Assembly (NCBI GenBank): GCA_965178125.1
Contig: OZ237736.1
Location: 1,674,001-1,738,000 of the forward strand
DNA: 64,000 nucleotides
Source of the DNA: Bilabrum cf. latius
Taxonomy: Eukaryota
Reading direction: 5' to 3'
Shown: piece after piece, positions 17,007 through 64,000 of the stretch
How the letters are laid out: each line of letters opens with the position of its first letter
Numbering within the stretch: the stretch's first letter is position 1
The notes under the pieces: generated by a model
Database searches by the model: none
The model's input: only the letters and a program-made list of their open reading frames with translations
Told to the model about the DNA's origin: nothing
Position numbers and translations under genes: made by a program

Positions 17007-17327
17007 TATAAATATTGAGACTGTGTATATATCGGCCCATGTGTTTTGCCCCTTCACGATGAGCAAAGCGGAACCTTTAGATGCAGTGCCGAATTCGCAG
17101 TGCGCGGCGCCCGCGTTCACCTCAAATATTGTGGTTTGCAGATAGGGCGTGTTTAGATTGTCCCGGCCTCGCAGTTTCGTGCGATCATCTTAAGCTCTGT
17201 CGCAAACGCTAAGCGCGCAGCTCGGGGGTTCTGCAACAACCGTCTGGGTGCTTCTCTGTGGATCTACAAATACTCGTGCGTTCCAACCGCCCCCTTGAGC
17301 GCCCTACCGGGCCTCTGCATACGAAGC

Positions 17328-31433: not shown

Positions 31434-32446
31434 ATGGTGTCCATGCAGGGTGAGATGGGTGCAGTTATCATGATGAGGACTCAGGAAGCTTTGGAGAAGG
31501 GCATTGAGGATCTACGCTAGAAATACGCAAGGAAGGATGCTGAGAAAAAGGCCAGAGCCGCTCGAGGCGAAGATATTGATGGCACTGCAGCTGCTGGTGG
31601 TGCGAGCGCAGCCCCTAGTGGATCCGATGCTGCTGAATCAAGTGGTGTGAAGGATGGTGATGATACAGGCCCAGATGCTGAGCTGCGAGCATTGCGGGCA
31701 CGTCGTCTCGCCTAGTTGAAGAAACGAGCCAAGAAAACAGCGGAAGCAAGAAAAGCCGGACATGGAGACCTGAGAGAGATCAAGGAAGAAGAATTCTTGA
31801 AGGAAGTAACATCAAGCAAGAGAGTCGTCGTGCATTTCTTTCACGGGGACTTCAAACGGTGCGCCGTGATGGACAAGGTAAGCCACACCATTTGGACTGC
31901 TGCGACCCGACTTCATCACAAACGCGCAATAATTTGTCCCAACTGCTGCGCACGACTTGTTCCTCGCAGCATCTTCGCGTCTTGGCCCCAAGGCTTGCTC
32001 AAACCAAGTTCTTGCGACTGGATGCTACCAAGGCCCCGTTCTTCGTCGGCAAGTTGGCGGTCCGGATCATGCCAACACTTGTTGGGTTTATCGATGGAGT
32101 TGCGAGGGGCAGGCAGCTTGGATTCCAAGGGCTCGGGGGATCAGAGGATTTCAACACGGGGCTGCTCGTTGAGGTGCTGCGTGGTATGGGAGTAGCTGAC
32201 GAAGAGGAGTGCGTGCGTGTTCTTGATGAGATCGAGAGCCGGGGCACGATCGTTGCTGGAAGTGCGGTGACTGGGTCTAGCGCTACCACAGGCGATGCGG
32301 ACGATGTCCTGGCCGACAAGCTGGATGCAGCACGCGCAGACGGTGCTGACAGCTCGGAGCTGGCCCGAATCCGCATGCAAGAAGAACTCGAGAGACGGAG
32401 AGCTGCATACGTTAAGGCGCTAGATGATGCCGACTTGGAGGGCTAA
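31434..32446 (+). CDS. Phosducin-like protein 3 / TXNDC9; intron 31878-31969
   Basis: ELRALRARRLA*LKK...GHGDLREIKEEEFLKEVTSSKRVVVHFFH.DF.RC.VMDK|HL..LA.....KF...DA.KAPFFV.KL.VRIMPTL...DG. TAA stop. Confidence 0.9.
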
Positions 32447-32633
32447 TGTTCATTTCTTGAAACTCTTTACCCTGAATGGAAAATCAGCGCTGATACAGCG
32501 CCGCTGGACGGCGTGGCACTGGCAGCAATGTGATGAGTGCACTGTCGTCATGCTCACTTCTCAACGCTCAGCACAAAATCTGCCCACGTAGCCAGTGGGA
32601 ACCGTAAATTTTGCTACCTGTGGCGAGAACGCC

Positions 32634-35600
32634 ATGTATCCGGAGTGTTGCTCGAAGCGCTACGCGTTCCTGGTCATGATTGTCTTGGTGGCAGCCATTG
32701 GAGTGCTGGCCACTGCCAATCCAGAGATAGATGCTCCCGAAAGCGATTCGCAGTCCGCACTGGGGTTGCCTGGTATCAGATCGTATCAAAGGAAAAATTT
32801 AAAGCTTGTGCAGCAAGTTAATGCATTGCGAAGATCCCTTGCCTTGGCTGAATAGAAGGTCTCCGAACTGGAGGATTCGTCTGCACCCGATCGTATTGAG
32901 CATGCAGAATCTCGTAGCAATGCGATTCGGCAAGAGCAGCAGCTAGAGCAACAGCGAATTGAAGCAGAAAAGGTCAAAATTGAGCGCATGCGACAAGAAA
33001 CAGAGCTCGCAATGGCAAAGTCGGCAGCTGCGAACGCCACGGCAAAGGCCGAAGCGTCCCGCGCGCAGGCAGCGACAAGGGCAGCAGAGGCCGCCAGGCA
33101 AAACGCTGCATTGGAAATTTTTCGCGCTGGTTTGCGTAATGCGGAAATCAATGCTAGTGTGGCGATTCGTGATGCAGCAGAGGCGGAGCGGCGACGGCTG
33201 CAAGCCGAGACTGACCATGTTAGAGCAGTGCAAGCTGCTCTGCTTGCCAACACAAGCAACATGCAGATGGGGATTCAATCATTGGAGAGCAAACGACAGT
33301 AGCACTTAGTAAGTCTGGATTTGGAGAAGAACAGGTTGTCTCGCCTGGATGCGGAGCTTCGGCTCGCAACCGCTGCTGCGGCAGCTGCTCAGGCCAACGC
33401 AAGCGTTGCATCCACGGAGGTAGCGCTCTGGAATGCAAAGACAGAACATATTTAGGCCAGTGTTAGGTTGCATGAGCTGCGAGTGCGCGAAATTGAGACA
33501 GGTATTCTGGAAGAGCGCGCTCAAGCCGATACAGCTCGGGCCGAAGCTGCAGCCTCGCATGGCAGGGCGCTTGAGCGCGCTGCTGAGGCAGAGGTTGAAG
33601 CGGCACGAGCAGCAAAATCAGAAGCTGAACTGCTGCAGGAAACCGCAAAGGTCGAAGCAGCAGAGGCGTAGATCCGCGCTGTCCGTGCGAAGGCTGACCT
33701 TGAGAAAGAGTTGCGCGAACACGACCACCTGGCTGCGTAGTAGCGGCGGCAAGACATGCGCGATGCCGAACTTTTGAAGGACAGACTAGCTCGTGAACGT
33801 GCTAAAGAGAAAGAAGAACTTCATTTCAGTCTCTAGGCCAAGTAGCTGCAGCTTGAAGAGAGCTCTGCAAAGACGAAAGCGCTCGCCGACGCCGAGGCTA
33901 GGGTGTGGGAACGGCAGCAGACCTCCGAGGAACGAGCGCAGGAGTCCAAAGAGCGGGAGCAGCACGAGACTCAACGGTGGAAATCAGTAGTCGATCAGAT
34001 TATCCAAGCGTGCGGGCACGGAGCTCGCCAGCTTCTGGGGCCCATGCTGCTACCGACAGCGGCCGCTGTTGCAATCCTCTGCGCCGCATGGTATGCCGTC
34101 CGTCGGCTGGTCGACATCGTGACAGCCCAGCTCAACTCCATTCTTAACCGCCCCAAGGTGTTCAGAGAGACCAGTGCTGATTCCATGGACTTCCTGTCCT
34201 GGATAAGAGGCGTTGGCTTGCTGGGGGCTCTCCGTGCTATGCTGCTCAGTGCGATCGTATCCATCATCAGGGTACTCAGCCTTGGATGCTGTTGGCGGGT
34301 GCACTCTGATTGGTTCAATTCCGTGTGGCGTTGCGGTTGCTGTGCTAGTGGTAGTACGGTTTCTTCAGCAAGACGAGGTGACATTGCCAACGATGTGCTC
34401 GCTGGGGTGGTATTGAGTCCTCCATTGCACTCTGATGTCGCGAGCTTCTGCCGTAGCATCCACGCTGCAAGACAGCGAGGGCGCCCATTTCGAAATTGCT
34501 TGCTGTATGGACCTCCCGGCACAGGCAAGACACTGCTTGCTAAACGAATCGCCAAGAGTTGTGGCCTGGCATTCGCCATGGCCTCAGGGGGAGACATTGC
34601 CTCGCTCGGCTCGACCGCAGTCTCGGAGCTCAATAGAATGTTCGAGTGGGCCACACACATGGCGAGCAGCGGCGATTCAGGCAGTGCGTTCGAAGCGGTT
34701 GTATCATCCTTGCTGTCATTCTGCCTAGGAAAGGCAATGGCAGGACCTGTGGTGCGGTGGTTCTCTCGAGCCGCAACAGCCGGTCCCTGGCACTGGCTAC
34801 ATTCGTTCATGTGGGAGAATGTTTGCGGACCACGCGACAGCAGCGGTAGTTCTAGCCATGATTTGTCACTTCAAGGGGGTGCAGTATTGTTCATCGATGA
34901 GTGTGAAGCGTTCCTAGGAACTCGCAGCGACACCCCAGGTGATGGGTCTGTATCGCAGGGTCACGGAGCGACCTTGTCTACATTTCTCTCCCTCACTGGT
35001 TCGCAGCGAACAGATGTCATGGTCATTCTAGCATCCAACCGCCCGGGGGATTTGGACAGCGCGGTCACGGACAGGATGGACCTTGCCCTAAGCCTTCCCC
35101 TGCCCGGGTTGCGCGAGCGCAAGATGCTGCTCCGCCAGCTTTGGCACGTACTCATCATGCCCCATGTATTGTCTGGCGGCCCAGACATGTTCGACCAGAT
35201 AACAGATACAAGTAAATCACTTGGAGACTGGGGCCGAAGGCAGTCTAAAGGAGGGCACGACTCCGAAGCAAGCGAGGATGCTTCTCTTGGAGCGGCCGCT
35301 GCTGCGGCAGGGTGCTCCGTCGACGAGCTTCCACAAACTATGAGTGGCACAAACAAGCAGCGGTGTGCTGCAATGTGGTCTGATGTTAATAGCGATCTGC
35401 TTGACATGGTTGCCCGGGGCACGAGCGGTTTCAGTGGCAGACAGCTCCGCAAGCTCGTGGCGTCTATTCTCGCCGACGCTGAAGCAGGCCGCTGCGGGCA
35501 TTCCGCTGCGTCCATTGACGGCTCTTCATTATACGTGGGGTCTCTTAATGCGGAACTCGTGGAACACGTCTTGCGTAGAGAACAAAGGAAGCACAGCAAC

Positions 35601-35846
35601 AGGTTGAAGTCGGGAGGCCAAAGGCACGAAGCTTCTGGCGATGTGCGCCATCCCCACGCCTCCTTCACCGTCCCAGGGAACTTGCAGAGGGCACTACGGG
35701 CTTATCCCGATAAACAGCACAATTTCGAGGGGCCTAGTGTAGACGAGCGCCAGTAGGCTGGGAACTCGACGGCGGAGCAAAGCCCTCGCGAAGCTGGCTG
35801 GGAAGGCGAGCTTGTTGGCAGCCCTATCCGTACGTCTTGGGATTGA
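32634..35846 (+). CDS. ATAD3-like AAA+ ATPase with N-terminal hydrophobic leader and long coiled coil (~1070 aa)
   Basis: PFRNCLLYGPPGTGKT (Walker A), AMASGGDIA.LG..AV.EL..MF.W, LFIDECEAFL (Walker B), LASNRPGDLDSAV.DRMD, T.GFSGRQL.KL. The upstream coiled coil is joined through TAGs, including tandem TAGTAG at 33738. TGA at 35844. Confidence 0.85.
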
Positions 35847-46359: not shown

Positions 46360-46547
46360 CTTAGTGAGATGACCCAAGAAAGCGCTGTGCCAGCCATGGG
46401 ACGGCTCTTGGAAAAACCCACGATTTTCTGAATACTGCACGCAACAATATCATCATAATCGTATTTCCGTTCTGTTGCCAGATTCTTGGCTTGCAAGGAG
46501 GTAAACAAGCCCATAGTTGTGTAGAAACCACGAGTGGTTCGTGAAAT

Positions 46548-49500
46548 ATGGGTTGTGGATCAAGTAAGCTGTCGGTCGTTCCCGCAACGTAGTAGAAAGA
46601 CGGGCAACTGGCTGGATTGATTGGCTCAACAGATACTACGACAGCTGCGTCGCCGAAGAAAGCTACGAACCAGTCCATGGATATGCCTGGCTCCGGCAAG
46701 ACAACCGCGTCTAAAGACCAAGCTTCAAGCGCTACAGGAGCAGCTTCTGGTATGACCTCTGCACCGCAGCAAGAACGGATAACTCCCTCACCGTCACGCG
46801 ACCCGGTGGCCAATGCTCAGAAAAAGGCAGACGGTGCGAGGCAGGGCGGCCCAGATTCTAGACCAAATGGCGCGGATCAAGCTTCTGGGTCGAAGACTAG
46901 TAGTGATCCGGATTCGGCTGCGCTGCCGGAAGCGTCGCCAAAGCGAAGGCCCGAAGCATCCAACGAATCGAAGCTCTCACCAAGACCGGCGAGCTCTTTG
47001 GGCAAACACATATCCGCTGAAGTCCTGGCTGAGGGCAAAGAGAAGCTTAAGCACGTGACGGCTCCGACAGAGGAAGAACTCGCAAAGCAAAGAGCAGAGC
47101 TGCGCAATGACGGCGCAGCACCCATGTTTAACGTTGAGGACCTAGACTCGAGATTTGAACGTGTGGGTATCAAAGGGATTCGTCTCAAACCTGAGCCAAA
47201 GAAAAAACGGGTGAAGGGTGCGTCTCACTTTAAGGCAGCTGCCGATGCTGTCATGTCGGCCTCGAGCCTCAACAAGGACGCGGCGCAGTCCAGGGACAGC
47301 CAGCCCCAGGACGCCGCTGCGCCCGGTCCGTCACAGCTAGCAGGCAAGCCCAAGTTCGGACTTTCCCCGGAGGACATGGCTGGCTCCGACGATGACTCAG
47401 ACCTGTCGAGTGTTGGGAGCAGTGACGACGACGACGACGAGGTGCTGGATGAGGACTGGCTCGCGACCGGCACGGCGGACGACGAGCAGGCTGGGGCCGG
47501 GGATGGAGACCAGGAGGGATCGGAGGAAGCCGAGGAAGCCAAGCCGACCGAAAAAGACGAGGAAGAGGAAGAGGAGGATGACGGCGTGGACTGGTCCGAC
47601 CTGGAGACCCTCCGGGCCGTGCTGCTGCGGGCCCAGCTTACCGCCGAAAATAGGCGCGAGTTCGTCGAGGCGCTGCAGCGACAGACGTTCTAGCCGGGTT
47701 CCTACGTGGTGCACCAAGGCGAGAAGGGCGACTCGTTCTACATCATCACGAAGGGCGAGGTGGTCGTGTCCAAGACCCTCGAGAGCCAAGAGGACGAAGA
47801 GTCGTTCAGCGCGGTGGGACTCGTCATCGACGGAGTGGACCCCAGTGGCAGTCGGACGAGAGAGGGTGTGCTTACACGCCTGTACCAGGGACACTTCTTC
47901 GGCGAAATGGCGCTTCGACAGAAAAAGCCGAGGAACGCCAATGTGCGTGTCTTGTCGTCGCAGCCAGTCCAGTGCGCGCGGATGGACCAGGAGAGGTTCC
48001 ATGCATTCCAGGAACAAAGCGAAAAGTTTAAGAGCATCATTGGCCATCTCATCATTGAGAAGGAAGCATCTAAGAAGAAGAGGGACGAGATGAGGCGCAA
48101 ATACCTGGAGGAGGTGGAGGAGGAGGAGGAGGAGATCATGGACAACAAGAATCACGTCTTGGAGATGGAGCCGGTGCACAAGTCCAAGAATGCAGACGGT
48201 AAAGTTGTGTTGAATGGGTATGTCTTGCAGTACAAAATCGGACAGGGCGCTTTTGGAAAGGTGTACTTGGCCCAGAAGGAGGGGGAGGAGCGTCTCTACG
48301 CCGTGAAGCGCGTGGACCAGGCCGCCATGGCGAGGCGGAACCGTCTGCCTGGGGGTCGGCCGGGGAACGGTAGCGGCTAGAAGGACGCAATCGCTAGCTA
48401 GGCGAGCAGTGCTGGCATGGAGAACTACGACGATGTCACTCGGGAGGTGATGGTCATGCAGCGGTTGCAGCACCCCAACATCGTCCGTCTGTACGAGTGC
48501 TTTCAGGAGAAGCCGAAAGGTGATGGAGCGACGAGGCGGAGCCAGTACCTGTACATGGTGCAAGAGTTCATTCCTAACGGAACTATCCAGGAGGAGGAGC
48601 TGGAGAATGAACCGATTGACCCTGACATTTGCAGGCACGTGTTCCGTGGTCTGCTTGCCGGGCTGCAGTACCTCCACTGGCAGGGCGTGGTGCACCGCGA
48701 TATCAAGCCGAGCAACATCCTGATCGATGAGAACAACAACGCTAAGCTCGCTGACTTTGGCACTGCTGCTCTCGTGCCGCCCGATAACGATCGACTAAGC
48801 GACGTGCAGGGCACACCGGCATTCCAACCGCCGGAGATTTTCACGATGGAGCGGGGGTCTGGCAACACGTACAGTGGGTTTGCATTTGACATGTGGTCGG
48901 CAGGGGCAACCCTATATTCGCTTGTGTTCGGGCGGCCCCCATTTATGGCAAAAGGCCAGGTGGCGCTGGTGGAGGCTGTCACCCATGACGAGCTGAAGAT
49001 AGAGGAGAGCAAGGTGAACCCATTCTTGCGCAACTTGCTCATGGGTCTGCTTGAGAAGGACCCGTCCAAGCGCATGACGCTGCCCGGCGCGATGACGCAT
49101 GACTGGGTCACGCAGGAGGGGGCTGACCCTCTGATCACAGCTAGACACAAACGGTTGCGTCTCCACGACATTGCAGAAAGGTCGCGCATGGCATAGCTCG
49201 CATCGATTACCGTGCAGAAGGTGGCAGGTCCCGAGCAGCAGGTAGGCACAGCTGCCGCAGGGTCATCGAGGGCACAGTCCAAAGGTGCTGGAGCGTCCGG
49301 TCGCCCAACACCTCCACCTCGAGGGCTGCGCCCGCCGCCACGTCCAACAGTGCGGATTGGCCGGTAGTCCTCCAATGAATCCACTGATACATTCGCCAGT
49401 GCTGTGCGTGGATCACCCACCACACCGACGTCGGGAACAGGCATAGGGTAGGGCCGCCCTGCAGTTGCCAGTCTCAACCTCGGGTTACGAACAGGAGATA

Positions 49501-52500
49501 CCGCTGCACCGCCTACAACAAAGAGTGGGCAGCGCGCGAGGAGACGGAGCGTTGCTGTGGCCGGATACCGATACAACCCTATCACACCGCTGTCTGCTCG
49601 TGATGGATTCGGTGGTGGCTAGTCACTCCTGAAGGGAGCTTCTACGTCTCGCGGTGGCGGCAAGGGCTTCAATAAATGGGGATCAAAGGAGGCTGCCGGT
49701 GGCAGAGGAGACGCCCCAGCATCGGGTGCAGGTGCAAGCGAGCGGCCGGGTGGGGGCCCCAGTGGTGCAGAGCTACTCGCGAAGAGTTTAACTCGAACCT
49801 AGTCTGCTCCCTACTTGCTTCCGAGCGTTCGAGAGGACCCGCTGCTCAAGTCGTAGACTGCAGTTAGTCGGCACGAGTATGAAATGAGGCAGAATCGTTT
49901 CGGCCGCCTTTGGCGCACCAAAAACCACAGCCATGCAAAGCATGGCATGCCCCACGCTGGGCATGCCAAGGGCAAACGGCGCAGCATCTTCATCAAAAAC
50001 GACGTGGAAGTCGGAATGGAGGGCGTTACGCAATCCCCCCGCATTGACCACGAGCTTCAAGTGAGGCCGGGTAGGGGCCATGGCGGCGGTGTAGATAGTG
50101 TCGGATACTCTAGCCCAGATGCTGCGGCTGGAGGTGGTGCTGGGCCTGCCACTTCAGTTTCGGGCAGCAGTGCTGGACCACGGGGCGGACGAGTGGTCGG
50201 CCTTCAGGAGAAGAAAAGGGCCGAAACTCGCCGGAAGAAGCAGCAGGAGACGCAGGCTAAGATTCGTGAGCTGTGCCGAGCAACGCAGAAAAAGAGGATG
50301 CGCCTTTTCAAGGGCTACGAGGGTCAGTTGGACAGCAAGACGCTCCAGGTGCTCATGGACCAGGGCAGGCTCCCAATCGCAGCAGAACGTGCAGCGGCTC
50401 AAGTTGTCGACATGGAAATTTTCAGCGGTGGGGGAGGGAAAGACGATGCCAAGTCAACGGACAGTGACGCGAGTGCCAATGGCAACGCAAGCCCGCCAGG
50501 TCATGTTACAATGGAAGGACTTGGGCCAGCTTCACCTGGAGCTGGCAGTCGAAATCTGGGCGGCAGCAGCGGCCTCGGATTAAATTCTTCCTTGAAAGGC
50601 AAGCTTGGAGGCTCCGGTGAGCTCAGCAAGTCCAAGCAGGTTCTATCCCGGGCTGAGAGTGAGGCGAGACTTCACAAAGGTGGCCTCAGTCGAACGAAGG
50701 ACTTTGTGATGGTCCGCCACGAAGCTGCTGCCGGAGGTGCGGATGGCGGTCGAGCAATGAAAGGAGTCGTATTCACTTCGAACACTGATTCGCTCAGTCT
50801 TGTGGGTGGCTTGAGAAATGCGCAGCTGAACAAGAGGGGTCAGGGCTAGGACCAGCTGGGAGGCATCGGGGCAACCCATGTAGAAGCAAGCGATGAAGAC
50901 TCGTCTGACGACGACGATGCCAGTCTGGACAGCGCTAGCGAATGGGCTGGCGATGGTGGCGGGCGCAAGAGCGGCATTAAGAAGAGCAGAAAGAATAGGG
51001 TCGAGTCGGGCAGCGACAGCGATTCGGACAGCGACAGCGATGGCGAGGAGATCGTCGCATTGGATGGTAATGACGATATCAACGACGTGTTTGACGAGCT
51101 AGAGGCCTACAAGCACAAGCATGACCCCTCGCTGGACGACCTATCTAAAGAGGAAGAAGCTAGGCTTGCCGTCGCTTTGGCCAGTCTGTCTGTGGACGAG
51201 ATGGCAGCCACAAAAGCAGGTGAAGTACCTCGGGCAGCAGATGCTGCCAGGCGTGGGGAGCAGCTGGAAGGCGACACCGTCGAGCAAGAGAACGAAGATG
51301 ACAGCGATGCTGACGACGTTCACGAAGCAGGATCTGCTGACGGCCTCCGCACTCCGCCCTTGGTGGAGAAGCAAAGTGATGACAGTACGCCTCTCTCTCC
51401 CGCTGCGAGCAGCGACGCAGCAGTTGGATAGGAAGCAGTGAGCAGGATGTAGGCCAGCAAGGTGGAGCAGAAGCATGCCAAGCAAAGGGCGAGAGAGGCT
51501 ATTCCCATGCGGACAGTGCGAAACAACTGGGGTGGTGTGGACCCTATACGAGGCCTTGTGTGGGCTGCTGCTGAGCGCTAGGGCAAACCTGACTACATGG
51601 AAGATCGTTTCCTTGCTGTACCCACCGTGTACGATCGGCGCGATGTGGGAGGGGCACAGGAGCCAGACTGGGTCAGGGCTTGTGGTGGGGCTGCCACATT
51701 TGCTGTGTTTGACGGCCACAAAGGGGACACTGCGTCTGAGTACCTGCGACGTGGCTGGTAGCGGAAGCTGCGAGATGTGCTTGCGAGACCTGAGTCTCGG
51801 CCACCATAGTTACCTCCGATGTCAGCTCGTGATAGCAGCCGTGGCGTAGATGGCGTCAGTGCAGCAACAGGTGGTGCTTTCTCCCCTCGACCGGGCGACG
51901 AGGAGGCCGCTCCCGAGCCTGACTTGCCGATTGGTGTGGCCAGCAGTGGAGACAGCATGGCAAGGGCTCTTCAAGCCGCGTGTACTGAATTGGATGGCGA
52001 GTTGCTGGCTCACTGCAAGAAATACGATGTTGGAGACGGCTCCACTGGAACTGCTGTGGTTTTTATGAGAGATCCTGCAGGTGTAGCGGGTGACGAGGCC
52101 GGTTTGCTGTCTACAGCGAAGGCTCCACTTCGAGTTTGGTGTGCAAACGTTGGAGACACTCGGGCAGTACTTAGTCGAGGTGGCATTGCTGTTGAACTCT
52201 CCAAGGACCACGGCACGGATGATCCCGAAGAGGTCGCTAGGGTACACAGCGTTGGTGGGGCGATCAAGCAGCGCAGGCTGCAAGGCATTCTGGCTGTGAC
52301 TCGAGCTTTCGGTGACATGGAGCTCAAGGTTGACTACGAGGGTCGATATGTTGAGGACCTTACGGGGCCACCACTTATTGCAATGCCGGATGTCGTGCGT
52401 CGTTCCATTGATGCGGAGCGCCCAGAGGATGAGGCCGAAGTGGTAGACGATGATGATGACCCTGATGAGTTGGATCGTGTTGGTAGGGACGCCAGGAACA

Positions 52501-53018
52501 GCTCCGCGTCTGCTCGGGACCAAGAGCTAGGCGTCGATCTCACGGCTGGCCGAGTAAGTAGGGGGCGTGATAGCTCTCTTAGTGGCGAGAAACTGGGTCC
52601 AACAGAGGACCGGGACGAGAGCAATTTCAACTTGCTGTCTTCAAAGGCGGGTGCATCGAAATTGACCACCGAGGACAGTCCGAGCAAGGGTGCAGGAGCA
52701 GCCATGGCATCTAGGTCTAAGGAATCGGACGGAGCAGATCGAGGCGTGCTTGACGGATGGCGCACAGCTACAGGGTCTGATGAGTTCGTCATCATAGCAT
52801 GTGACGGTCTGTGGGACGTCATGAGCAGCCAGTAGGCCGTGAACTTCGTACGTCGACAGCTTGCTGAGCACGGTGACCTTGTGCGAGCTGCCAATGAGCT
52901 CGTGCAGAAATCACTTGAGCTATTCACCATCGACAACGTCACAGCAATCATCGTTGGTTTCATGAGAGAAGGTGCTGGCGAGCCTGCAGTTGCTGGCGAC
53001 AGCCTGATGACCGTGTAA
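46548..53018 (+). CDS. N-acylated cNMP-binding domain + CaMKK/SnAK-like kinase + PP2C (PPM) phosphatase fusion, 2156 aa
   Basis: One intronless frame with only TAGs. MGCGSSK start; F*PGSYVVHQGEKGDSFYII.KGEV...GHFFGEMAL...PRNANV (cNMP); IGQGAFGKV, YAVK, HRDIKPSN, DFG, GTPAFQPPE (kinase); R*GKPDYMEDR, FAVFDGH, ANVGDTR, LSKDH, LAVTRAFGD, IACDGLWDV, DNVT (PP2C). TAA at 53016. Confidence 0.9.
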
Positions 53019-53133: not shown

Positions 53134-53143
53134 ATTCTCCAAT

Positions 53144-53514
53144 CGCCCACCTCCATCCGCCGCCCTCTGCAGGCACCACCCACCAGCCACATCCCAAGCG
53201 CCCACCTCCATCCGCCGCCCTCTGCAGGCACCACCCACCAACCACATCCCAAGCGCCCACCTCCATCCACCGCCCTCTGCAGGCACCACCCACCAGCCAC
53301 ATCCCAAGCGCCCACCTCCATCCGCCGCCCTCTGCAGGCACCACCCACCAACCACATCCCAAGCGCCCACCTCCATCCACCGCCCTCTGCAGGCACCACC
53401 CACCAGCCACATCCCAAGCGCCCACCTCCATCCGCCGCCCTCTGCAGGCACCACCCACCAGCCACATCCCAAGCGCTCGCCTCTATCCGCCGCCCTCTGC
53501 AGGCACCACCCACC
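53144..53514. repeat. Subtelomeric 55-bp C-rich satellite, ~6.7 copies
   Basis: Unit cgcccacctccatccgccgccctctgcaggcaccacccaccagccacatcccaag with alternating variants; abuts the TTAGGG array. Confidence 0.95.
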
Positions 53515-53767
53515 TTAGGGTAGATTAGGGTTAGGGTTAGGGTTAGGGTTAGGGTTAGGGTTAGGGTTAGGGTTAGGGTTAGGGTTAGGGTTAGGGTTAG
53601 GGTTAGGGTTAGGGTTAGGGTTAGGGTTAGGGTTAGGGTTAGGGTTAGGGTTAGGGTTAGGGTTAGGGTTAGGGTTAGGGTTAGGGTTAGGGTTAGGGTT
53701 AGGGTTAGGGTTAGGGTTAGGGTTAGGGTTAGGGTTAGGGTTAGGGTTAGGGTTAGGGTTAGGGTTA
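53515..53767 (+). repeat. Internal telomeric array (TTAGGG)~41
   Basis: Near-perfect hexamer run with one variant near its start; unique sequence resumes at 53768. Confidence 0.97.
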
Positions 53768-55613
53768 CAGTACCATCCTAGGCCAGGCCCGGGCGCCGCG
53801 AAAGTATCATGTTCCGCAAAAAGTATCATGTTCCGCAAAGACGGTGTTGCCGCGCAGTGTCCAAGTGGTCGCAAGATCGCACTGAGGCAGATCTGGGCCA
53901 GTTGCAGATATGCAAGCAGTCGACAAGAGGTGCAAGTGATTAGCAATGCATATTTGGTGTATGATTATGCTTGTCTGCTTGGTTTACAATGAATCTCGGC
54001 CTCGGTCTCCTCGGTGGTGCTGCCCGTGGGTGACGAGCACCCAGGGGGCTGCACGGGATGGACGCCCACCCGGCGAGTCTGGACCAAACCGCGTCGTGCA
54101 AATTGGGTTTGCCAAGGAGGTGTGCCCTGCTGTGTTTCGCCCGCGAGAATAGGGGGTTGTCTCCCCGTCGGGCAGGTGCTCCATCCAGCTCGCCCGTCCG
54201 TGACTGAGACAGCACGGGCCGCGACAAGTGCGCGAGCCCGGGGATCAAGTCAGCGGCCGATGGCAGCGAGCCGGCATGAAGCGCGTGCACGAGGAGCTTG
54301 CGCTTCCCATGCACTGCCTGCCCCACCTCATTGCGGATCTGGGACATCAGGTTCATCGTGTTGCCACACACACCTCCACACTCGACGATCGGATCTACAG
54401 AGACACCTGTCCCGGGATGCTGCTCCTCGTCATTGGCCTGCTCCTTCTCGCCCCGGGGGCACGCGCTGCCTCGAAGCACGCACCCGCGCTCCCGCCCGAC
54501 TCAAGGACTGAGTGCTGGGAGGGTGCGCGGGCAGCCGCGTGAGAGGATGACGGGCGTGCCGCCGAAGGCCGAGTCCAGGAGCTGGGGACGGGACGCATCG
54601 TTGGGACTGCCCTGAGGAGACCAAAGAATCAACCGCCATCCGTACGGATCCCTATACGGTTGGCCGGTCTGACTCTCTGCTCGCCCACCGCACAGATCTG
54701 CTCAGTTCCATGCAATGTTTGCCAGAAGCGGCGAGAGGGTCTCATCAGCACAGGTGGGTCCTAAAGGCTGCCTGCAATGCATAGAAAAAGAATATATCGA
54801 TTGAAACTAATTAATAGCCCCTCGATGCATGGCAACATACCCGAGTGCTGCCATGAAAACCGGACAACGCACAAGCACGTTAGCAGACCAGCGATGATCC
54901 CATACAGATGCCAGAACCTAACAGAAACACCAACAATCAATTTGAATGAATACAATAGAATCAAAATACCTGGCGGTTGTTGTACTCGGGCTATGCGGTA
55001 CCTAGCTGTTCTGTCTGCAAACGCCATGGCGCGCCCCAATGAGGCGAGACCAAAAGCAGACCCACAGCAGCATGTCACCTTGAACATACAACGACATATG
55101 GCAGTAAGTGGTAATTAACATGAATCCCAACAGGCCTCAGTACAGTTGAGCCGGTATGTGGCGCTGAGAGGTGTGGTTGCGCCAGAATCCGCAAACGGTC
55201 GTGAACAGCGGAACCAGCATGCGCGGCGCCGAGGACGTCCAGCAGGGCAAGCCTGTAGCAGGGTGTGCACCGGTTCACGGTACCGATGCTTGGATGTTTG
55301 TGGGCTAGGAATCTGTTTTGTAATACACATGATAGGGTTAGCCCTAACCCTTCAGAATCGGATGCATGGTTCATTTACTTCCATGAGAAGGGCTGACGTC
55401 CTGCATGCACTACATTAGCCCAAATACAACACACGCACATGTCGTCTTGAAACAGTGCACCTCTTTATATTACAGTGGATATAACTCATGGCGAGAGAGG
55501 CTTGTCTGTCTGCAGTGCTGCAATGCAGCTCTTCACTGCTGCACATGCAGCTCGAGGTTCTGCAAGTTATCTGTTCTGCATAGAAAATCACAGAACATGA
55601 CACCTCACTGGCC

Positions 55614-58600
55614 TCATGTCCATTTCTCGTCAAACCCCCAGCCTTCTTGCTCAATTGCTGGGATGTGTACCCACCGTGGAGCGGTGCCAAGAAGAAGGAT
55701 CTCGATTTCGCCACGTGCCCGTGAAATATCTCGCTGGCCCATACCACGCAATCCAGCGCCGGGCACTGATGGCGCCATGTTCTGGTCACCACGAATTCCT
55801 CTAGGTCGTGACAGTGCTGAAGTCGGCGGCTGCGTGATGGCGCTGGAGGCTGCTCCCAGCGGCGGCTGCAACTCGGCAAGGCCGTCACTACCAGCCTTGT
55901 CGGTAGGCATCTGCAGCAATCGACCGATTGGATCATCATCGCTGCCAGCCCCACTGGATGCTGATTCCGAGGCAGGCCTCAATGGTTCCGATGCCCTGCT
56001 GCCGATCGCAGTTCGGTTGAATGCGTTGGCCTCCGTTCGTTCTGCGGGACTCGAGCTCGCATGCTCGCCGGATTGCCGCATGTGCCTTGATCGCTTCTAT
56101 TGCCCTTCTTCCTCATCGCTCTCATGGCCGGGCCAAATATGTCCCAACGAATCTAGGCTATGCTCAAGAGCAGAAGTAGTGGTGGATGCCTGTGACAGGA
56201 TGCTGTCGCCATCGTCAAGAGGACGAGCACGTGTGTACATCCGAAGAACCTAGCTGCAGTGTTGCGATTGAGGTATGTGATACGCACGCCAAAGCTCGTG
56301 CCTCTGGTCGGCACTCACGCCTGCTTCTCCTGCTTCTGCACGTGCTCGGGCCACCATGGATCGGACATCTCCCACAGCTTTCAAGCTTTGAGCTAGTGAC
56401 CTGCGTACCAGCCCCTTGCCTGCTGCCTTGTAGTACGGGGCTTCTGATAGTGCAGGCACTACTGATGGACTACAGGGCAGGTTAATGCAGAGACCAGCGC
56501 CGTAGTAGCCTACATCGATGACACGACGCAGTGACCCATCCTACCTGTTCAGCGCCCCTCTGAAGACTTGAGGACAATCAAAGCCTGGGTTCATCCACTT
56601 GAAATGATCTAGCACGACAGACTCCACGTGCTGGGCAATGGTAACGGCAGGCTGGGCGGTTCTTGGTGGTGGCGAGACGTCGAGCACTGTCTAAAGTCCA
56701 GATCGTGCAATCGACGGCTGGCCTCCCCTTGGTCGCTTCGTTCCAGGCAGAGGGGGCCGCTGCAACCGATCGGGCAGCAATACTGCAGACCCAATCACAC
56801 ACGCAGGTAAAAGCCACACTGATACCATACGACGAAACTGCTCGTCTGCGAGGGATGGCTGTCCGTTCTGCCTGGTGCCTACGACAGCACGAAGAATTGA
56901 AGCGACGTACGAGGTCCGGACAGATGACTCGGCAGCAAGCTTGCGTTGCATGGTCCAGGATAACGATGTTATCAACGCATAGCCTAGCTTGGAGGCCCTA
57001 GCAGATGTCGTGGTCGCCAAGTCACCCCTGAGATTCCCAGCGTTCTTAGAGCCGCGCCACATTGCGCCTGCATCTGGCCTGGGACTGAAGGCAATCTTGG
57101 ATATGCACATCTGCAAGCCAACTAGTATTGCACTCCTTGAGCACCTGAGCCGAGATAGGAGCAGCCCGTACAGTGCTACAGCTAGGCTGCCCCTTGCTAG
57201 CATTCCTTTCCGTGTGCCACTGCGAAGGTGGAGCTTTGCCAGGTGCATTTGCGCAAGGTAAAGCTTCCGTAGCTGCTGCTCCATGACTACAGCGTGGGAC
57301 ATGTCTGTAGACTTGGCAAAGTGCAACAATAGCCTGGACCGCTCAGGCAGTCGAGACAAAATGTCAGCCTGCACGTCAGCCCGTACCATAGCACGAAAGC
57401 CGGTGATTCCGTTGTTCACACCGCTGATGCCCAACTGGAAGTGCTCGTCACCTTGCGTTGATACGAGTCCAGAAAGACCATACCTCTCGGAGATCCGAGA
57501 GATCTGCCATGTCATGCCCAAGCCTTCTGCCAACGCACACAGGCTCCAAGACGTTACCATGACCTCACAGACGGCAAGCACAGTCCACGAGTTCAAGAAC
57601 GTACCGTTGCACCCCCCAGCCCTGACTGACTACACCGCATTTCCGATTTGATCAATGATGGCGGATGCAACCGCCATTACATTAGACTGCTCAGGCATAC
57701 TGCTAGCAGATTGCAAACAGTCACGGACGCTGGACCACTCCAGTGTCGAAGGCCCTAAGTTTCGAAGAACTGGCCTAGTAGCGGGAAGCCACGTTACGGC
57801 AATTTGCTCTGCAACAACCTGAGACCATGCATCTGTCCGTAGAGCCACGCAGCCTTCCATACAGCATCTGCTCATCGATGCAGCTAGCGCCCACATCGCC
57901 GATCGCTGATACGTGGGAATCCTGTCTGCACCACAGACAGCTGCTACGAGCAGTCTTTCGATTCTGCAAAGTGCCCGACGGAGTGTATACCTGAGCATTT
58001 CCAAGTGATTCATGATGGATGTCTTCTTCACGACCTCCACGAAGCATTGCGAGAATGGAGCCACTGACAAATGCTCGATAGTGTCGGCGCGATGTTCACT
58101 CCGTAACTGTCCGTACTGCAGTTCAGCTGGTAGCACTACGGAGGCCAGCATCAGACTCATGGTTGACGCGGGTACATCGAACTCGCCCCTGGTCGATCCA
58201 AGGATTCCTGCAGTTAGCCTTGCATAGCTTTGAGTGAATGCCGTTTGCAGCCCAAGGTATATCCGCCGGCGGGTTGGCAGTGCATCCAGAGCTGCCTAGG
58301 CTCGAATCATGCTTGCAGTTCTCGAACTCAAAGTCGATGGAGCATGTGCATCCGATTCAGCGAAGTGGCGAACCTTAGAGAGAACTCGTCGGCGAAACTG
58401 GTCATATGCAGAGTCGTGCGCCCCTGGACTAGGCTGAAATGCTCGGAATGCTCCAGGCTGGTACAAATGCAGCTGAGATGACAGCATGCAGCCAAGTGAC
58501 ATAAATGAAGGCATGCCGTAGTCGTTGCCAGTGTCATTCTCGGCTAAAACACGTCGGTGCACGGAAAGCACGTCACCCCAGGATAGCGTAGCTGGAAGCA

Positions 58601-61600
58601 TTCCTTGGAAGGTTCCGGCGTACTCTCCAACGGACGCCAGCGCCGCATATGGACGAATTCGCTCTTGCATCACGGCATACCGTGCGTGTTCGAGCCGTGT
58701 TCCGTGTATGACTCCTCGCAGCAACTGATCCCGACAGCTATGCATGTACTGAACTGTTGCTGGGTTTGGTACAGCAACTGACACTGAGCGTTCACCACAC
58801 ACCTCAAAGCCTACGCCAAAACTGCAGTACATGGCCATATCCGCATCCTGTTGCGGCCACAGCTGTCCGTACGGATGAATTATGGCTGCGAGATCTCTCA
58901 TACCTCGGCGTTGATGACGTCCAGTCCAAGCAGGTGCTCGCGCCGCGCCGCGGTACAGCTGTTCCCGAGCACTGCGTGTCAGTGTTTTCCTGCTCACCTT
59001 CCTGTTTGTAGCGCCTGACGCCGATCGCTTGCCATCTCCTGTTGGACCAAACCATTCACCTCTGCGGCCTCTGGCAAACTCCTCATCGCTCTCATCCATT
59101 GCGATCTCCCGAGCACGTTCTTCTTCTGCCTGCTGGGCAGCCAAGTCTTCATGAGCTTTGCGAAGCTGTCCCTGTGCTGCCTGTTGCAAGAGAGACATAG
59201 GATTGCATGCTTTGCAGCCCACTCGCTAGGCGTAGAACACGGAGCACCTGGCTATCTGTCTCATCAGCAGTATCATGAGGAAGCAGTTGTAGTGTGATAC
59301 TAAGTGCAGATGATCAAGTAAAGAGTCGTGACTCAAAGACCACTCGTAGGAGCTGCTGTGCTATGCTTCATCATTCTCCACGCCACGTTGCTTAGCGAAG
59401 TCGTCGTCCTCATCCACGTCCACGTCGGTGTCGTCTGAATCGCTCTGCGCAGCAGCACCACCGCTTATTCCCACGCCTTCATTCTGCTGAGCCTCGTCAG
59501 AATCAGAGTCAGAGTCACTCAACTAGTCAACGGCTGGGTAGCCAAGCCACCGTACCCAATGAAATGCGCACGAAAGCAACCGGGATGGGCTTCTGTGCAG
59601 GGTGTGAGAGCCAGGCCAGAATCTACTTGTCTGTGGACCAGGTCCACTCCCAGCGTGTGCGAGCGACGAATGGTATCCACCGGCTTGGCCTCCACCACGT
59701 TGGACACGTACCACTAGCTCTGGACCTAGCCAGTCGAGCCTGCTGGCAGCAGCCGTGAGCCCGCAGCCGAAGACGTACAGCACACAGCTTCGGATCACAT
59801 CCACATGGGAGCCCTGGGTCCAGAAGCCTTCATGCATACTCATTTCTACAACACCCTCAGTATCAAGCGTTTGCTGCAAGGACTGAGACGGAGGTTCGAA
59901 CGAGTCTATCAGGTCACGGCAAAGATCAAGCAATCCACTAGGTACAAGAATAGATACCGTAGCAGCACCAACATCGAAAAGTTGAACGTGGATGTCAGCA
60001 GCGAGTCCGCGCAGTATACGAAGCGTTGGCAATTTCGACGATTGATCGTTTGCGTTTTCTGCTTGCGTGCTGACAGCCCTACTCCACAAGGTTCCAGAAT
60101 GCGGCACCACTGAAGCCCACCCTTCCCTTGCAGCCTTGTCGACATCACGATGGAACTATCGGGTGCACTCCTACTCAATTAGTTTGCTATACTTGGTAAC
60201 ATCAGACAAGGCCCCGGCAGCCAACACCCGGATGCTTGAGCCACCAAGTCCATTCGGACACTTCTGCTGCAGATCGGTCACCTTGGATCGTAAGCTATCA
60301 ATCTGCTCTTGGTCGCAACGACGCTCAGCCCACAGCATCGCAGTTTGCTAGTCTTTGAAAACGTCATCCCCGTCATCAAGGAATGCTGTCCATGATATGC
60401 GCATTGATCCGCCGGCAGGCGGCCGCTGTGCGTGCGGGGCGCGAACTACCACGCCAGTTGAGGGTGATTGAGACAAGCTGGTATACGACGGAAGCAGCGA
60501 ATCTGAGTCATGTACACCTAGAACGCCATCTGTGATCCAGTCCAGCAGTGCATGGTCCGATCCATCAAGCCCCAGTGGGCTTGCCAACGTGTGAGGCAGA
60601 AAGTGGTTCGAAGTCTCGTCTGCACTGGATCCATTGAGGTCTGCGACAGCTCCAAGAACAGTGAACCCATCTAAATCAAATGCAGAATCGCTGTGACAAG
60701 ACAGCGGTACGTTTCTGGAACCTGGTGCAGACTTGAACGCTCTATATATCGCAGGCTGGTCCGGAATTGTGCTGTCCATTGATCTTCGCGGAGAGGCCGA
60801 GCTTGACAGGCCTCGGCTTGCACTCGGAGTGACGGGCTAGCTGGATGTTCGACTCTCTTTGACAGCGACTTTCTTCCTTGCTGCGGCACGAGATCCTTGC
60901 CTTCGGACGGCGGGCAATGGAGCGAACCCAAGGCACATGCCTGCCAAGAAGTCCAGGGGGGATGACAGGTGCTGTAGAGGTCCAGACTCCGTTTCTGGTT
61001 GGGACATCTGATCGAGCGAGCTGCCAGTGGCCTAGCTGGCACCACGAGAACTACTGCTGTGGCTGCTTGCGGCGCCTGACGACTGTCGACGGCGGCTTGG
61101 CGAGCTGCCAGTGGCCTAGCTGGCACCACGAGAACTACTGCTGTGGCTGCTTGCGGCGCCTGACGACTGTCGACGGCGGCTTGGCGAGCTGCCAGTGGCC
61201 TAGCTGGCACCACGAGAACTACTGCTGTGGCTGCTTGCGGCGCCTGACGACTGTCGACGGCGGCTTGGCGAGCTGCCAGTGGCCTAGCTGGCACCACGAG
61301 AACTACTGCTGGGGCTGCTTGCGGCGCCTGACGACTGTCGACGGCGGCTTGGCGAGCTGCCAGTGGCCTAGCTGGCACCACGAGAACTACTGCTGGGGCT
61401 GCTTGCGGCGCCTGACGACTGTCGACGGCGGCTTGGCGAGCTGCCAGTGGCCTAGCTGGCACCACGAGAACTACTGCTGTGGCTGCTTGCGGCGCCTGAC
61501 GACTGTCGACGGCGGCTTGGCGAGCTGCCAGTGGCCTAGCTGGCACCACGAGAACTACTGCTGGGGCTGCTTGCGCCTCGTGACGATCGTGCACGAGTAG

Positions 61601-62292
61601 CCGTTTCAGGAAGTTCGAATCCCCGCATCTCACTGTGTGCTCCTGACATCTCTGCTCGGGCAGCGAGAGCAGCTTGGGCAGGCAGATATCCAGTTGGCGC
61701 GTACTAGCAGCAATCAACCAGCGATACGTATGTATGCAGATCTGACTCCTTAATCAAGTCGTCAATTAATTGTTTGTGAAATATTTCTGCATCAGCGCTG
61801 GGTGTATCGTAGACCGTGAGAAGATCGGCCAGCATGCCATTTTCGATGACATCGCTTGAGACTCCAAGTTCTCGAAGGCACTCCTAAATCTCTTCGACTT
61901 CGATGCCATCCATCTGCGATATAATAAACTGAAGTTCAATATACTGCGGTTGCTGCTGAGATGTACTCCTATTATCCCAACTGTAGCTCTGGCTTACTTC
62001 AGCTGGCGGATTCGGCTGCTGGGGATCGAAAGTGCGGATCATCTCTAATTTCTCTTCGGATATCTGCGTAACAATGCAACATAAGTATGTATTGAGCTGT
62101 CTGCGGCGGATAGCAAATCAATACTGCCCATATACTCCACATAGAACTCACTGGAACGTGCTACCAAAACAGAGCTCGACGATTCATTGCTCGCTGCAAT
62201 CTTTTGAGTACTTTGTGCATAGATTGCATCTAGCGTGTATCATCTAAGACTTTACATGCATCGTCAATGGAACACAAGGTTTCGTCAGACAT
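55614..62292 (-). CDS. Giant orphan protein (~2200 aa); exon 62063-55614 plus probable exon 62292-62152
   Basis: Seven tracked ORFs (55614, 56250, 56691, 57630, 58296, 59523, 60348) share one frame. I read the gaps and upstream region: ~6.45 kb with ~20 TAGs and no TAA/TGA until TGA 55614. A GTGAGT (62151)...CAG (62064) intron links it to ATG 62292. Confidence 0.8.
61016..61575. repeat. 84-bp coding minisatellite, ~6.6 copies (SPSRRRQSSGAASS[H/P]SSSSRGAS*ATGS on the minus strand)
   Basis: Near-identical 84-bp units, each with one in-frame TAG in the giant-ORF frame. Confidence 0.92.
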
Positions 62293-62503
62293 CTTTAGGC
62301 CGGTTCTGGCGCAAGCAATACTCAACGGAATATTGTGCGCGTCCCCCTCGTGGGGGGCGAGTGCCACCAGTGGGGGGTGCGTGCGGCGCCGCGCTCGACG
62401 GCGGAACACAGTATCTCAAACTGCAAGTGGTCTCGAACATCAAGATTTTTTTGTTTGCTTGCTGGCATTTTGTTTCTCTTCTGCCAGGCAGTGTGAAAAA
62501 TAT

Positions 62504-63451
62504 ATGTCAGACCATGCATCACCGTGGGCATTGCTTGGATTGAAGCCTGTAGACTTCGCAACGGAAAATCTCGCAATCCGCCGAGGCTTGTGTATCGCAG
62601 CTTGCGGCATATCGGTTGAAACCGTGCGGTGCATCTTTTAGGATGGTGCCTATGTATCTGCGCGATAGCGTACATCACTTCATAGTGTAATGCAGCGTAT
62701 TTGTGCGACAGATGACGGCAAAGTGCTGCGTGTCGACCCAAGCTTCTTGCTTGCGGAAACAGGCCAAAGACACTTGCGTTATGCTATCAATAGTATTAAA
62801 GAGAAGTCTGACGACGCAATCAGACGTGCCATGATGAAACTGGCTCCACAGAATGGGTTGGCGTTGCATGGAACCGGCAAGCACGCACCAAGCTCGTCGA
62901 AGCACGTCGAAAAGATGGCATGTGCTACTGCAGCTGAAGACGACACTGCAAATACTCAAAAGGGCTCATACCTGAGATCATCTGCCTCTGGGTGTGCAAG
63001 ATCGGAATCGAAAGGCAATGTTGGCTCAGGCTCCAGCCAGTAGCACCGGCGTGCACGGCGGGGCTAGTCCAAGGTCCACGGCCAGAAGATGCCGACTCAA
63101 GCCCAAGTATACTCGTGGCAAGAGGCAGTACTGCATCTGCGAACGCTCTGTGACGCATGCGAGCAGAAGGCTCACCTGACCGGAGCGGAAGCTCGCAGCT
63201 TGGTCAGATTGGCTAGCAGCAGCATCGAACCAGCTCTCGGGCGTCTAATGCAACTGGCGCGCGCAGACAAGTCTAAGAGGTCTGTGCCACTTAAGCGGAC
63301 TGCTACAGCGAGAACGAGCCTATCGCGTACACCCGTCGAGTTGCCCAAAAGGAGGAGAGGGGAGAAAAGGAAATTGCTCGCTGGGGATGCGACGCCATCG
63401 AAAAGGTGTAGGAGCATCCCTGGTGCAGTTTCGTTTCTTTCAGGGAAGTAA
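62504..63451 (+). CDS. Orphan basic protein (~315 aa), divergent from the giant ORF
   Basis: ORFs 62267, 62690 and 63089 are co-frame, separated only by TAGs (62639, 62666, 63041, 63065); TAA at 63449. NLS-like PKRRRGEKRK. Start ATG 62504 is inferred. Confidence 0.6.
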
Positions 63452-63546
63452 ATACTAGGTCAATACAGGTGGGCACTCGCCATCTCACTTCTATATCCAC
63501 CCAACACTCCCCCCTCCTAACTTCCAGCCAAATTGGCACCACGGCG

Positions 63547-63692
63547 CCATCCATCGCCCGCACAAACAACCTCCTTGCCCCGGCACAGCCACCATGGCCC
63601 CCATCCATCGCCCGCACACCCACCCTCCTTGCCCCGGCACAGCCACCATGGCCCCCATCCATCGCCCGCACACCCAACCTCCTTGCCCCGGC
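63547..63692. repeat. Subtelomeric 54-bp C-rich satellite, ~2.7 copies
   Basis: Unit ccatccatcgcccgcacacccaccctccttgccccggcacagccaccatggccc; abuts the terminal array. Confidence 0.9.
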
Positions 63693-64000
63693 TAGGGTTA
63701 GGGTTAGGGTTAGGGTTAGGGTTAGGGTTAGGGTTAGGGTTAGGGTTAGGGTTAGGGTTAGGGTTAGGGTTAGGGTTAGGGTTAGGGTTAGGGTTAGGGT
63801 TAGGGTTAGGGTTAGGGTTAGGGTTAGGGTTAGGGTTAGGGTTAGGGTTAGGGTTAGGGTTAGGGTTAGGGTTAGGGTTAGGGTTAGGGTTAGGGTTAGG
63901 GTTAGGGTTAGGGTTAGGGTTAGGGTTAGGGTTAGGGTTAGGGTTAGGGTTAGGGTTAGGGTTAGGGTTAGGGTTAGGGTTAGGGTTAGGGTTAGGGTTA
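63693..64000 (+). repeat. Telomeric array (TTAGGG)n, at least 51 copies, running off the window end
   Basis: Perfect hexamer run with the G-strand 5'->3' toward the window end. Confidence 0.98.

Follow-up and report, generated by a model that had tools for sequence, protein, structure and literature searches.

Where Y'-like elements came from is, to our knowledge, an open question, and Drosophila HeT-A is a telomeric element that lacks a reverse transcriptase (RT) and needs none of its own. In the portions of the published accounts on which we draw, the telomere-embedded elements compared here all carry a recognisable enzyme (an RT or a helicase) or rely on a partner that has one. The Y' elements of Saccharomyces cerevisiae (PMC13177704) are units of 5-10 kb that carry genes and lie beside telomere tracts or between them, with tandem copies, an internal minisatellite and conserved ORFs including a recognisable helicase; they spread by recombination/BIR, possibly through circles. 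MoTeR1 and MoTeR2 of Pyricularia oryzae (10.1101/845669, PMC8381367) form head-to-tail arrays with TTAGGG tracts between the units, distal truncations, identical truncations repeated by D-loop copying, non-coding derivatives and other transposons inserted in the units; the RT of MoTeR1 comes with a restriction-like endonuclease. Athena/Terminon endonuclease-free Penelope-like elements (PMC6431247, PMC8557442) attach in one polarity at telomere repeats, show repeat-capped truncation, keep introns and carry accessory ORFs, and HeT-A (PMC10088271) forms telomere arrays.

Here we describe a 9,933-bp module (53765-63697) between (TTAGGG)40 and (TTAGGG)86 in a window of 64,000 nucleotides (C2:1674001-1738000), 4.8 kb from the contig end, in the genome of Bilabrum cf. 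latius. The module and its relatives share with the four systems, as far as these are covered by the passages cited, the structural features just listed except the enzymes; spread by recombination, circles or D-loop copying is proposed for them. Unlike Y', the modules show no helicase motif, fall into four families, carry a divergent gene pair and are abundantly truncated distally; a proximal tract precedes every examined module start, as against about half of Y' elements (PMC13177704). Neither the RT nor the endonuclease of MoTeR1 was found. Unlike Athena/Terminons, the modules yielded no RT or hammerhead and have divergent rather than co-oriented genes. Unlike in the HeT-A system, the host retains telomerase and TTAGGG tracts, and no junction poly(A), RT-bearing partner or Gag match was found. 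Since the modules resemble Y' and MoTeR arrays but show the enzyme of neither family, we assign them to none. We found no description of such modules, or of a TAG=Gln code in a comparable organism, in the literature covered, mostly main texts of non-subscription papers. That the modules form a new element class is a possibility we raise tentatively.

A sequence-only reading of this DNA had singled out the long gene of the module as an orphan. Gene and element are both real and larger than that reading saw: the long gene belongs to a 9.9-kb two-gene module with relatives at other ends, and the second gene, the fixed module start and the same build of the whole genome's ends had been missed. From the centromere side, the module runs from a fixed start after TTAGGG through about 1.45 kb, the long gene, a spacer, the second gene and 54-bp repeats to the next tract (Table 1); the long gene reads toward the centromere and the second gene toward the telomere. 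Two more copies, both cut distally, follow beyond the window up to the contig end.

Table 1. Module features and adjoining repeats, in window positions.
Feature	Position	Strand	Remarks
55-bp tandem repeat	53139..53514	+	chromosome side of first telomere tract
Interstitial (TTAGGG)40 tract	53525..53767	+	module start in phase, TTA common to both
Fixed centromere-side end of module	53765..55230		apparently non-coding
Long gene, whole	62292-55614	-	one 88-nt intron, 2,196 aa, 24 TAG read as Gln
Long gene exon 2	55614..62063	-	6,450 nt, TGA end
84-bp tandem repeat	61016..61586	-	6.8 copies, codes Ser/Arg-rich 28-aa repeat; similar repeat in subfamily B
Long gene intron	62064..62151	-	88 nt, GT-AG, position common to subfamily B
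Long gene exon 1	62152..62292	-	141 nt, ATG at 62292
Spacer between divergent genes	62293..62503		211 bp; putative two-way promoter
Second gene	62504..63451	+	315 aa, divergent from long gene
54-bp tandem repeat	63547..63692	+	distal module end; copy number varies among copies
Second telomere tract	63693..64000	+	86 units in genome

The stretch of about 1.45 kb after the module start holds no convincing gene: short ORFs of the proximal 1.5 kb gave no Pfam match and show few substitutions, without codon-position bias. In this proximal segment the subfamilies are 94-95% identical, compared with 68-73% in the DNA of their genes, and its core (about 54065-54665) is almost invariant, with 0-3 differing bases per 150 among subfamilies. 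The gene spacer contains a GTTCCG and GGCGCC motif pair that recurs in a metagenomic relative and of which the 53 kb of host DNA has one instance, lying between a divergent pair of host ORFs; the pair is a candidate promoter element, and the spacer may act as a promoter. GGCGCC lies within 35 bases of GTTCCG or CGGAAC at window positions 53792, 55225, 62385 and 38875 and at position 1358 of the metagenomic contig (L076); such sites flank the proximal segment on either end and also occur within the gene spacer, in the repeats of family F3 and between divergent host ORFs.

Read with the UAG=Gln code (table 15), the long gene's frame has no TAA, no internal TGA and a terminal TGA, while the standard code yields 312 aa at most in one piece; the claim of a minus-strand protein of about 2,200 aa, visible only under that code, was correct. 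Each of the other five frames of exon 2 holds 29-73 TAA and TGA codons, and at this off-frame rate (246/10,746 codons) the chance of the open frame is about 1e-22. Within the genome's own RT/TERT loci, many of them related and not independent copies, TAG encodes the Gln of two RT motifs in 14/21 and 9/20 cases. Eleven of the 22 aligned TAG codons of the long gene stand opposite a Gln codon in the paralogue. The Gln meaning of TAG in this genome is supported independently of the long gene by the RT-motif positions, and also by the paralogue. One pattern-based scan for CUA-anticodon tRNAs found no tRNA (8 matches, 8 in the control). TAG makes up 18% of the Gln codons in the long gene and 17% in 11 host ORFs of the window, which, with the open frame, agrees with the earlier description of an intact, host-code-adapted protein.

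The intron noticed in that reading has GT..AG ends, and its prediction is supported by conservation: subfamily B has an 88-nt intron at the identical position, and the metagenomic relative has a 97-nt phase-0 intron near the start of its long frame. Positions 61620-63500 are present letter for letter, unspliced, in four public runs from one sample, possibly the assembly source, which has no bearing on expression. The Ser/Arg block reported earlier corresponds to the 84-bp repeat, and the acidic linker, which had been placed at 59400-59520, was located at about 59400-59510. A short telomere-like palindrome lies in the 3' flank of the long gene (55327-55352).

The earlier reading had recognised no motif in about 1000 aa of globular-looking sequence. 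For the long protein, no match was found in Pfam, NCBIfam or PHROGs, among PDB sequences (single sequence and three profiles), in phages (tblastn) or viral contigs, or, for residues 1060-1930, in a word-indexed search among near-length proteins. The F3 long protein retrieved only four pieces, at 99-100%, and a first-domain profile only three short pieces, at 68-83%. Databases hold only fragments of the long protein because standard gene callers break the frame at TAG. The long proteins have no conserved Walker A, RT, polymerase B, HUH, tyrosine-recombinase, helicase, recombinase or nuclease motif; Walker A occurs in 0/5 and a DEAD-like word in 1/5. The residues invariant in all five include, in the second block, a Tyr-x4-Phe-Arg-x8-His set and, in the first, several Asp; they are active-site candidates, no more. 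An AlphaFold model of residues 930-1930 from a two-row alignment was unusable (mean pLDDT 30). Likenesses seen by eye to a metallo-beta-lactamase start (HVQLFDVG), RT motif A, a DxD nucleotidyltransferase and a tyrosine recombinase were rejected, the partner motifs being absent in each case.

Searching the genome with the long protein gave eight loci, all at contig ends adjoining telomere tracts: four full copies that are 99-100% identical, one cut by a contig start, and three of subfamily B (66% in the core). Telomere linkage is supported. An ordinary subtelomeric gene family fits less well: the copies are embedded in the telomere-repeat arrays themselves, their modules begin at a fixed point but differ in their distal ends, and two further module families have homologous long genes. 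That the gene is the functional core of a telomeric cassette fits the module anatomy, and the core role is putative. Between subfamilies A and B the long proteins are 60% identical overall, and dN/dS is 0.23 overall and 0.17-0.20 in three globular blocks (dS 1.0-1.5, near saturation), revealing the purifying selection that the earlier reading had left to be sought; the changes between two A alleles (8 synonymous, 14 replacement) are too scarce for a verdict. In subfamily B the second gene has 42% identity (E 3e-62), with pN 0.41 below pS 0.67.

Outside the genome, a profile of the C-terminal half gave 11 matches among 1.84 billion cluster representatives, all short pieces, and the eight clusters looked up had no names. 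One match led to a metagenomic contig of 8,118 bp (L076). Its single frame of 1,902 aa needs table 15 to stay open, contains 24 TAG and is 26% identical to the long protein along its length. This contig has a 5' intron, a divergent second ORF (a weak match to the second gene, E 0.027) and GT-rich repeats beyond that ORF, and stops before any telomere tract. Two other loci (L077 and L078, E 3e-4) were dismissed as chance matches, having no telomere repeats and no profile match. Old, rearranged copies of the proximal segment (75-92%) were seen at L016:5300-6300 and L061:2264-3083, in the subtelomere inside the first tract.

We surveyed 46 regions at or near contig ends, which were chosen from search matches and contig order and not at random; two of them stop before the contig end is reached. 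They contain 169 telomere tracts and 131 starts of four module families (the window's family 19, F2 12, F3 94, F4 6). In these regions every start (131/131) directly follows TTAGGGTTAGGG, none is reversed, and 38/46 regions have at least one. Junctions read TTAGGG and then TTACAG or TATC. Distal module ends vary and are capped by telomere repeats, mostly with little or no overlap with the repeat. Another 19 segments are family members that lack part of their proximal side, copies of an 821-bp repeat or DNA without relation to the families; 21 are too short to class. Genome-wide, the F2/F4 start pattern gave 34 matches against none in a control, one of them far from an end at an internal telomere array. 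At C14:701395-703790, telomere tracts with F2 and F3 starts lie in the middle of a 1.2-Mb contig, reflecting a mis-join, a fusion or an internalised end. At C36, an F3 module is followed by 821-bp repeats with three telomere units between them.

A full-length F3 module (11.4 kb) and the longest F2 module (8.7 kb, cut) also carry a divergent long/short gene pair, with the long gene toward the telomere. F3 is the commonest telomere module, with at least 40 matches (C36:573866-585251 and C23:289-7326 among them), and its 2,346-codon frame reads toward the telomere, its 500-aa gene toward the centromere. The long protein of F2 matches that of F3 along about 900 aa (E 6e-19), and the F2 protein matches A and B at E about 1e-4. 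An A/B/C profile matches the F2/F3 profile with a probability of 86% (E 4.8e-6 over 505 columns; second block E 2.4e-4) and F3 alone weakly (E 0.004). With only about 20% identity between families, the long proteins of the window's family, F2 and F3 are taken, on these profile matches, as one remote superfamily. The F2 and F4 short genes are homologous (E 2e-29); the other short genes have no cross-family match.

Among 116 complete modules there are 76 junction types; seven types (35 modules) occur on more than one end and 69 on one end. A 683-bp module, mostly with 115-123 flanking repeats, lies on three contigs, and a unit of 1,220 bp, 11-13 repeats and 58 bp on four. Multi-end types often have equal tract lengths and an equal neighbour, ends with common types have no chromosome-side DNA in common where more than 1.5 kb could be compared, and in tandem runs unit and tract length repeat together. 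In one F4 module a telomere tract cuts the module inside an inserted virophage-like element, which we read as a break healed once the element had inserted. This module (C28:15097-24095) carries an AT-rich (36% GC) virophage/Polinton-like insert reading TAG as Gln, with an integrase-like ORF (by eye), an SF3-type helicase and a protein-primed polymerase B. Its polymerase has 17 near-identical copies (96-99%), mostly internal, and 45 matches genome-wide, and the polymerase/helicase/integrase block was rejected as an autonomous partner, being a separate dispersed insert. The host's TERT is intact, one open 1,767-aa frame (C4:1605605-1610905) with 14 TAG and a long Ala-Gly repeat. In gene style and in its virophage-like inserts the host is reminiscent of bicosoecid stramenopiles.

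We regard as the best explanation, at about even odds, that the modules are telomere-embedded DNA elements that spread in Y'-like fashion through telomere tracts, with break-and-heal, and encode a protein serving the element. A telomeric 3' end would invade a TTAGGG tract, either an interstitial one or one joined to a module in a circle, and copy the module behind it; under this proposal the centromere-side start is always exact because the telomeric end copies the module behind its tract. Later breaks within the module, healed by telomerase, would leave variable distal ends. The long protein and its short basic/acidic partner may act on telomeric DNA, favouring copying or protection of their own module; this would account for the selective maintenance of an intact 2,200-aa frame in so unstable a place. 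We infer the recombination route, transcription and this action on telomeric DNA. Identically cut modules with equal tract lengths on different chromosomes favour DNA-level copying over telomere-primed retroposition, as do the kept intron, which simple mRNA retroposition does not predict, and the opposite long-gene directions. The cited parts of the Y' (PMC13177704) and MoTeR (PMC8381367, 10.1101/845669) accounts describe amplification by the same tract-mediated DNA route. Against it, the long proteins have no conserved helicase, recombinase or nuclease motif, so that nothing links the protein to recombination; the DNA route also does not account for the first joining of module to tract. Tandem identical units could partly be assembly artefacts, and several contig ends carry bacterial-looking DNA. 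The 69 junction types confined to one end, the scant overlap at most distal junctions and the non-random choice of end regions also weigh against this route.

Telomere-primed retroposition leaves the same signature, a fixed start with a variable far end; recombination could have come second, as it did in MoTeR arrays. Unspliced, centromere-directed RNA ending in telomere-complementary repeats would then be copied at the 3' overhang by telomerase, by an undetected RT in trans or by the long protein as a polymerase diverged beyond recognition, with telomerase capping incomplete copies. Polarity and truncation fit equally well with telomere-primed reverse transcription as in Athena/Terminons, and the exact start, single polarity and nested distal truncation match both those elements and MoTeR arrays in the parts cited (PMC6431247, PMC8557442, 10.1101/845669); Penelope-like elements retain introns too (PMC8557442). 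A gene-less 2.7-kb derivative retains the proximal end and the distal repeats, and the genome matches the proximal 933 bp 24 times but the gene core at 8 loci. Of the two strands of the near-invariant core, the centromere-directed one folds better (z -4.55 vs -2.81, 20 shuffles), but only 2/210 predicted pairs show compensatory change, so that a consensus RNA structure is not supported by covariation, and of the 150-nt segments folded locally just one gives a strong result (z -4.3). We judge this explanation unlikely, in view also of the differing long-gene directions between families and of the searches for its enzymes. Among 4,299 ORFs of the 46 end regions and the metagenomic contig, no RT was found but one CRE-like copy inside the first tract, and no element combined an RT with an RLE or APE endonuclease. 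The long-protein profile gave no RT match (E 0.55), the control comparison of TERT with LINE RT itself coming to no better than 0.002; the genome has 84 RVT_1 matches, and no examined module contains one, in a search of limited sensitivity without TERT itself among its matches; and a TERT-RT query gave no Penelope-like RT, such searches being weak for TERT-like enzymes. Rfam detected no hammerhead ribozyme in seven loci (56,885 bases; three weak unrelated matches), a core-motif scan of six modules was empty, and the end regions examined showed neither poly(A) at the proximal junction nor an RT-bearing partner. The two genes might instead be host genes, such as telomere/chromatin proteins or contingency genes, trapped in the arrays and passively amplified. 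Host-like TAG use, a spliceosomal intron, a promoter motif of host type and steady purifying selection agree with this, but the search found no internal single-copy member (8/8 loci at ends), most copies are fragments, and homologues about 20% identical, with other partners and directions in three families, show a diversity more like that of mobile elements; we find it quite improbable. Very improbable, in our estimate, is a reduced telomere-integrating virus-like or linear-plasmid-like element with a structural or replicative long protein: the compact divergent two-gene layout, the repeats at both ends and their conservation in a distant environmental relative are in keeping with it, but no terminal inverted repeats were found in the module, its proteins gave no polymerase B, packaging ATPase or capsid match, and viral contigs and phages gave no match.

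Beyond Y'-like spread, it is conceivable, if doubtful, that the modules represent a new telomere-specific class in which a 2,000-2,350-aa protein, by an undescribed activity, joins the element to telomere repeats or copies it there with no RT, transposase or helicase that could be recognised, possibly recruiting telomerase to copy the element's RNA, and that such elements share end maintenance with telomerase across a UAG=Gln protist lineage. In this telomerase-positive protist, most of the chromosome ends examined are filled by the four families. Three of these code for a large protein under selection that has no match in Pfam, NCBIfam or PDB, and none outside its kin in the 1.84 billion representatives. 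The long protein is a new superfamily to solve, and the modules offer a natural setting in which to study how genes become residents of telomere arrays.

Beyond the last telomere tract, bacterial-looking ORFs were noted at C15:1-3802, C14:1-3441, C35:1-1669 and C20:1070543-1079703, probably chimeric reads or assembly contamination. On the chromosome side of the window, a plus-strand host gene (46545-53018), a single frame of 2,157 codons, joins cyclic-nucleotide-binding, CaMKK-like kinase and PP2C phosphatase domains and stops 500 bp short of the first telomere tract. Ordinary host genes in the window include a tRNA N2,N2-dimethylguanosine methyltransferase (17019-20210, plus strand) and an ATAD3-like AAA ATPase (32271-35846, plus strand).
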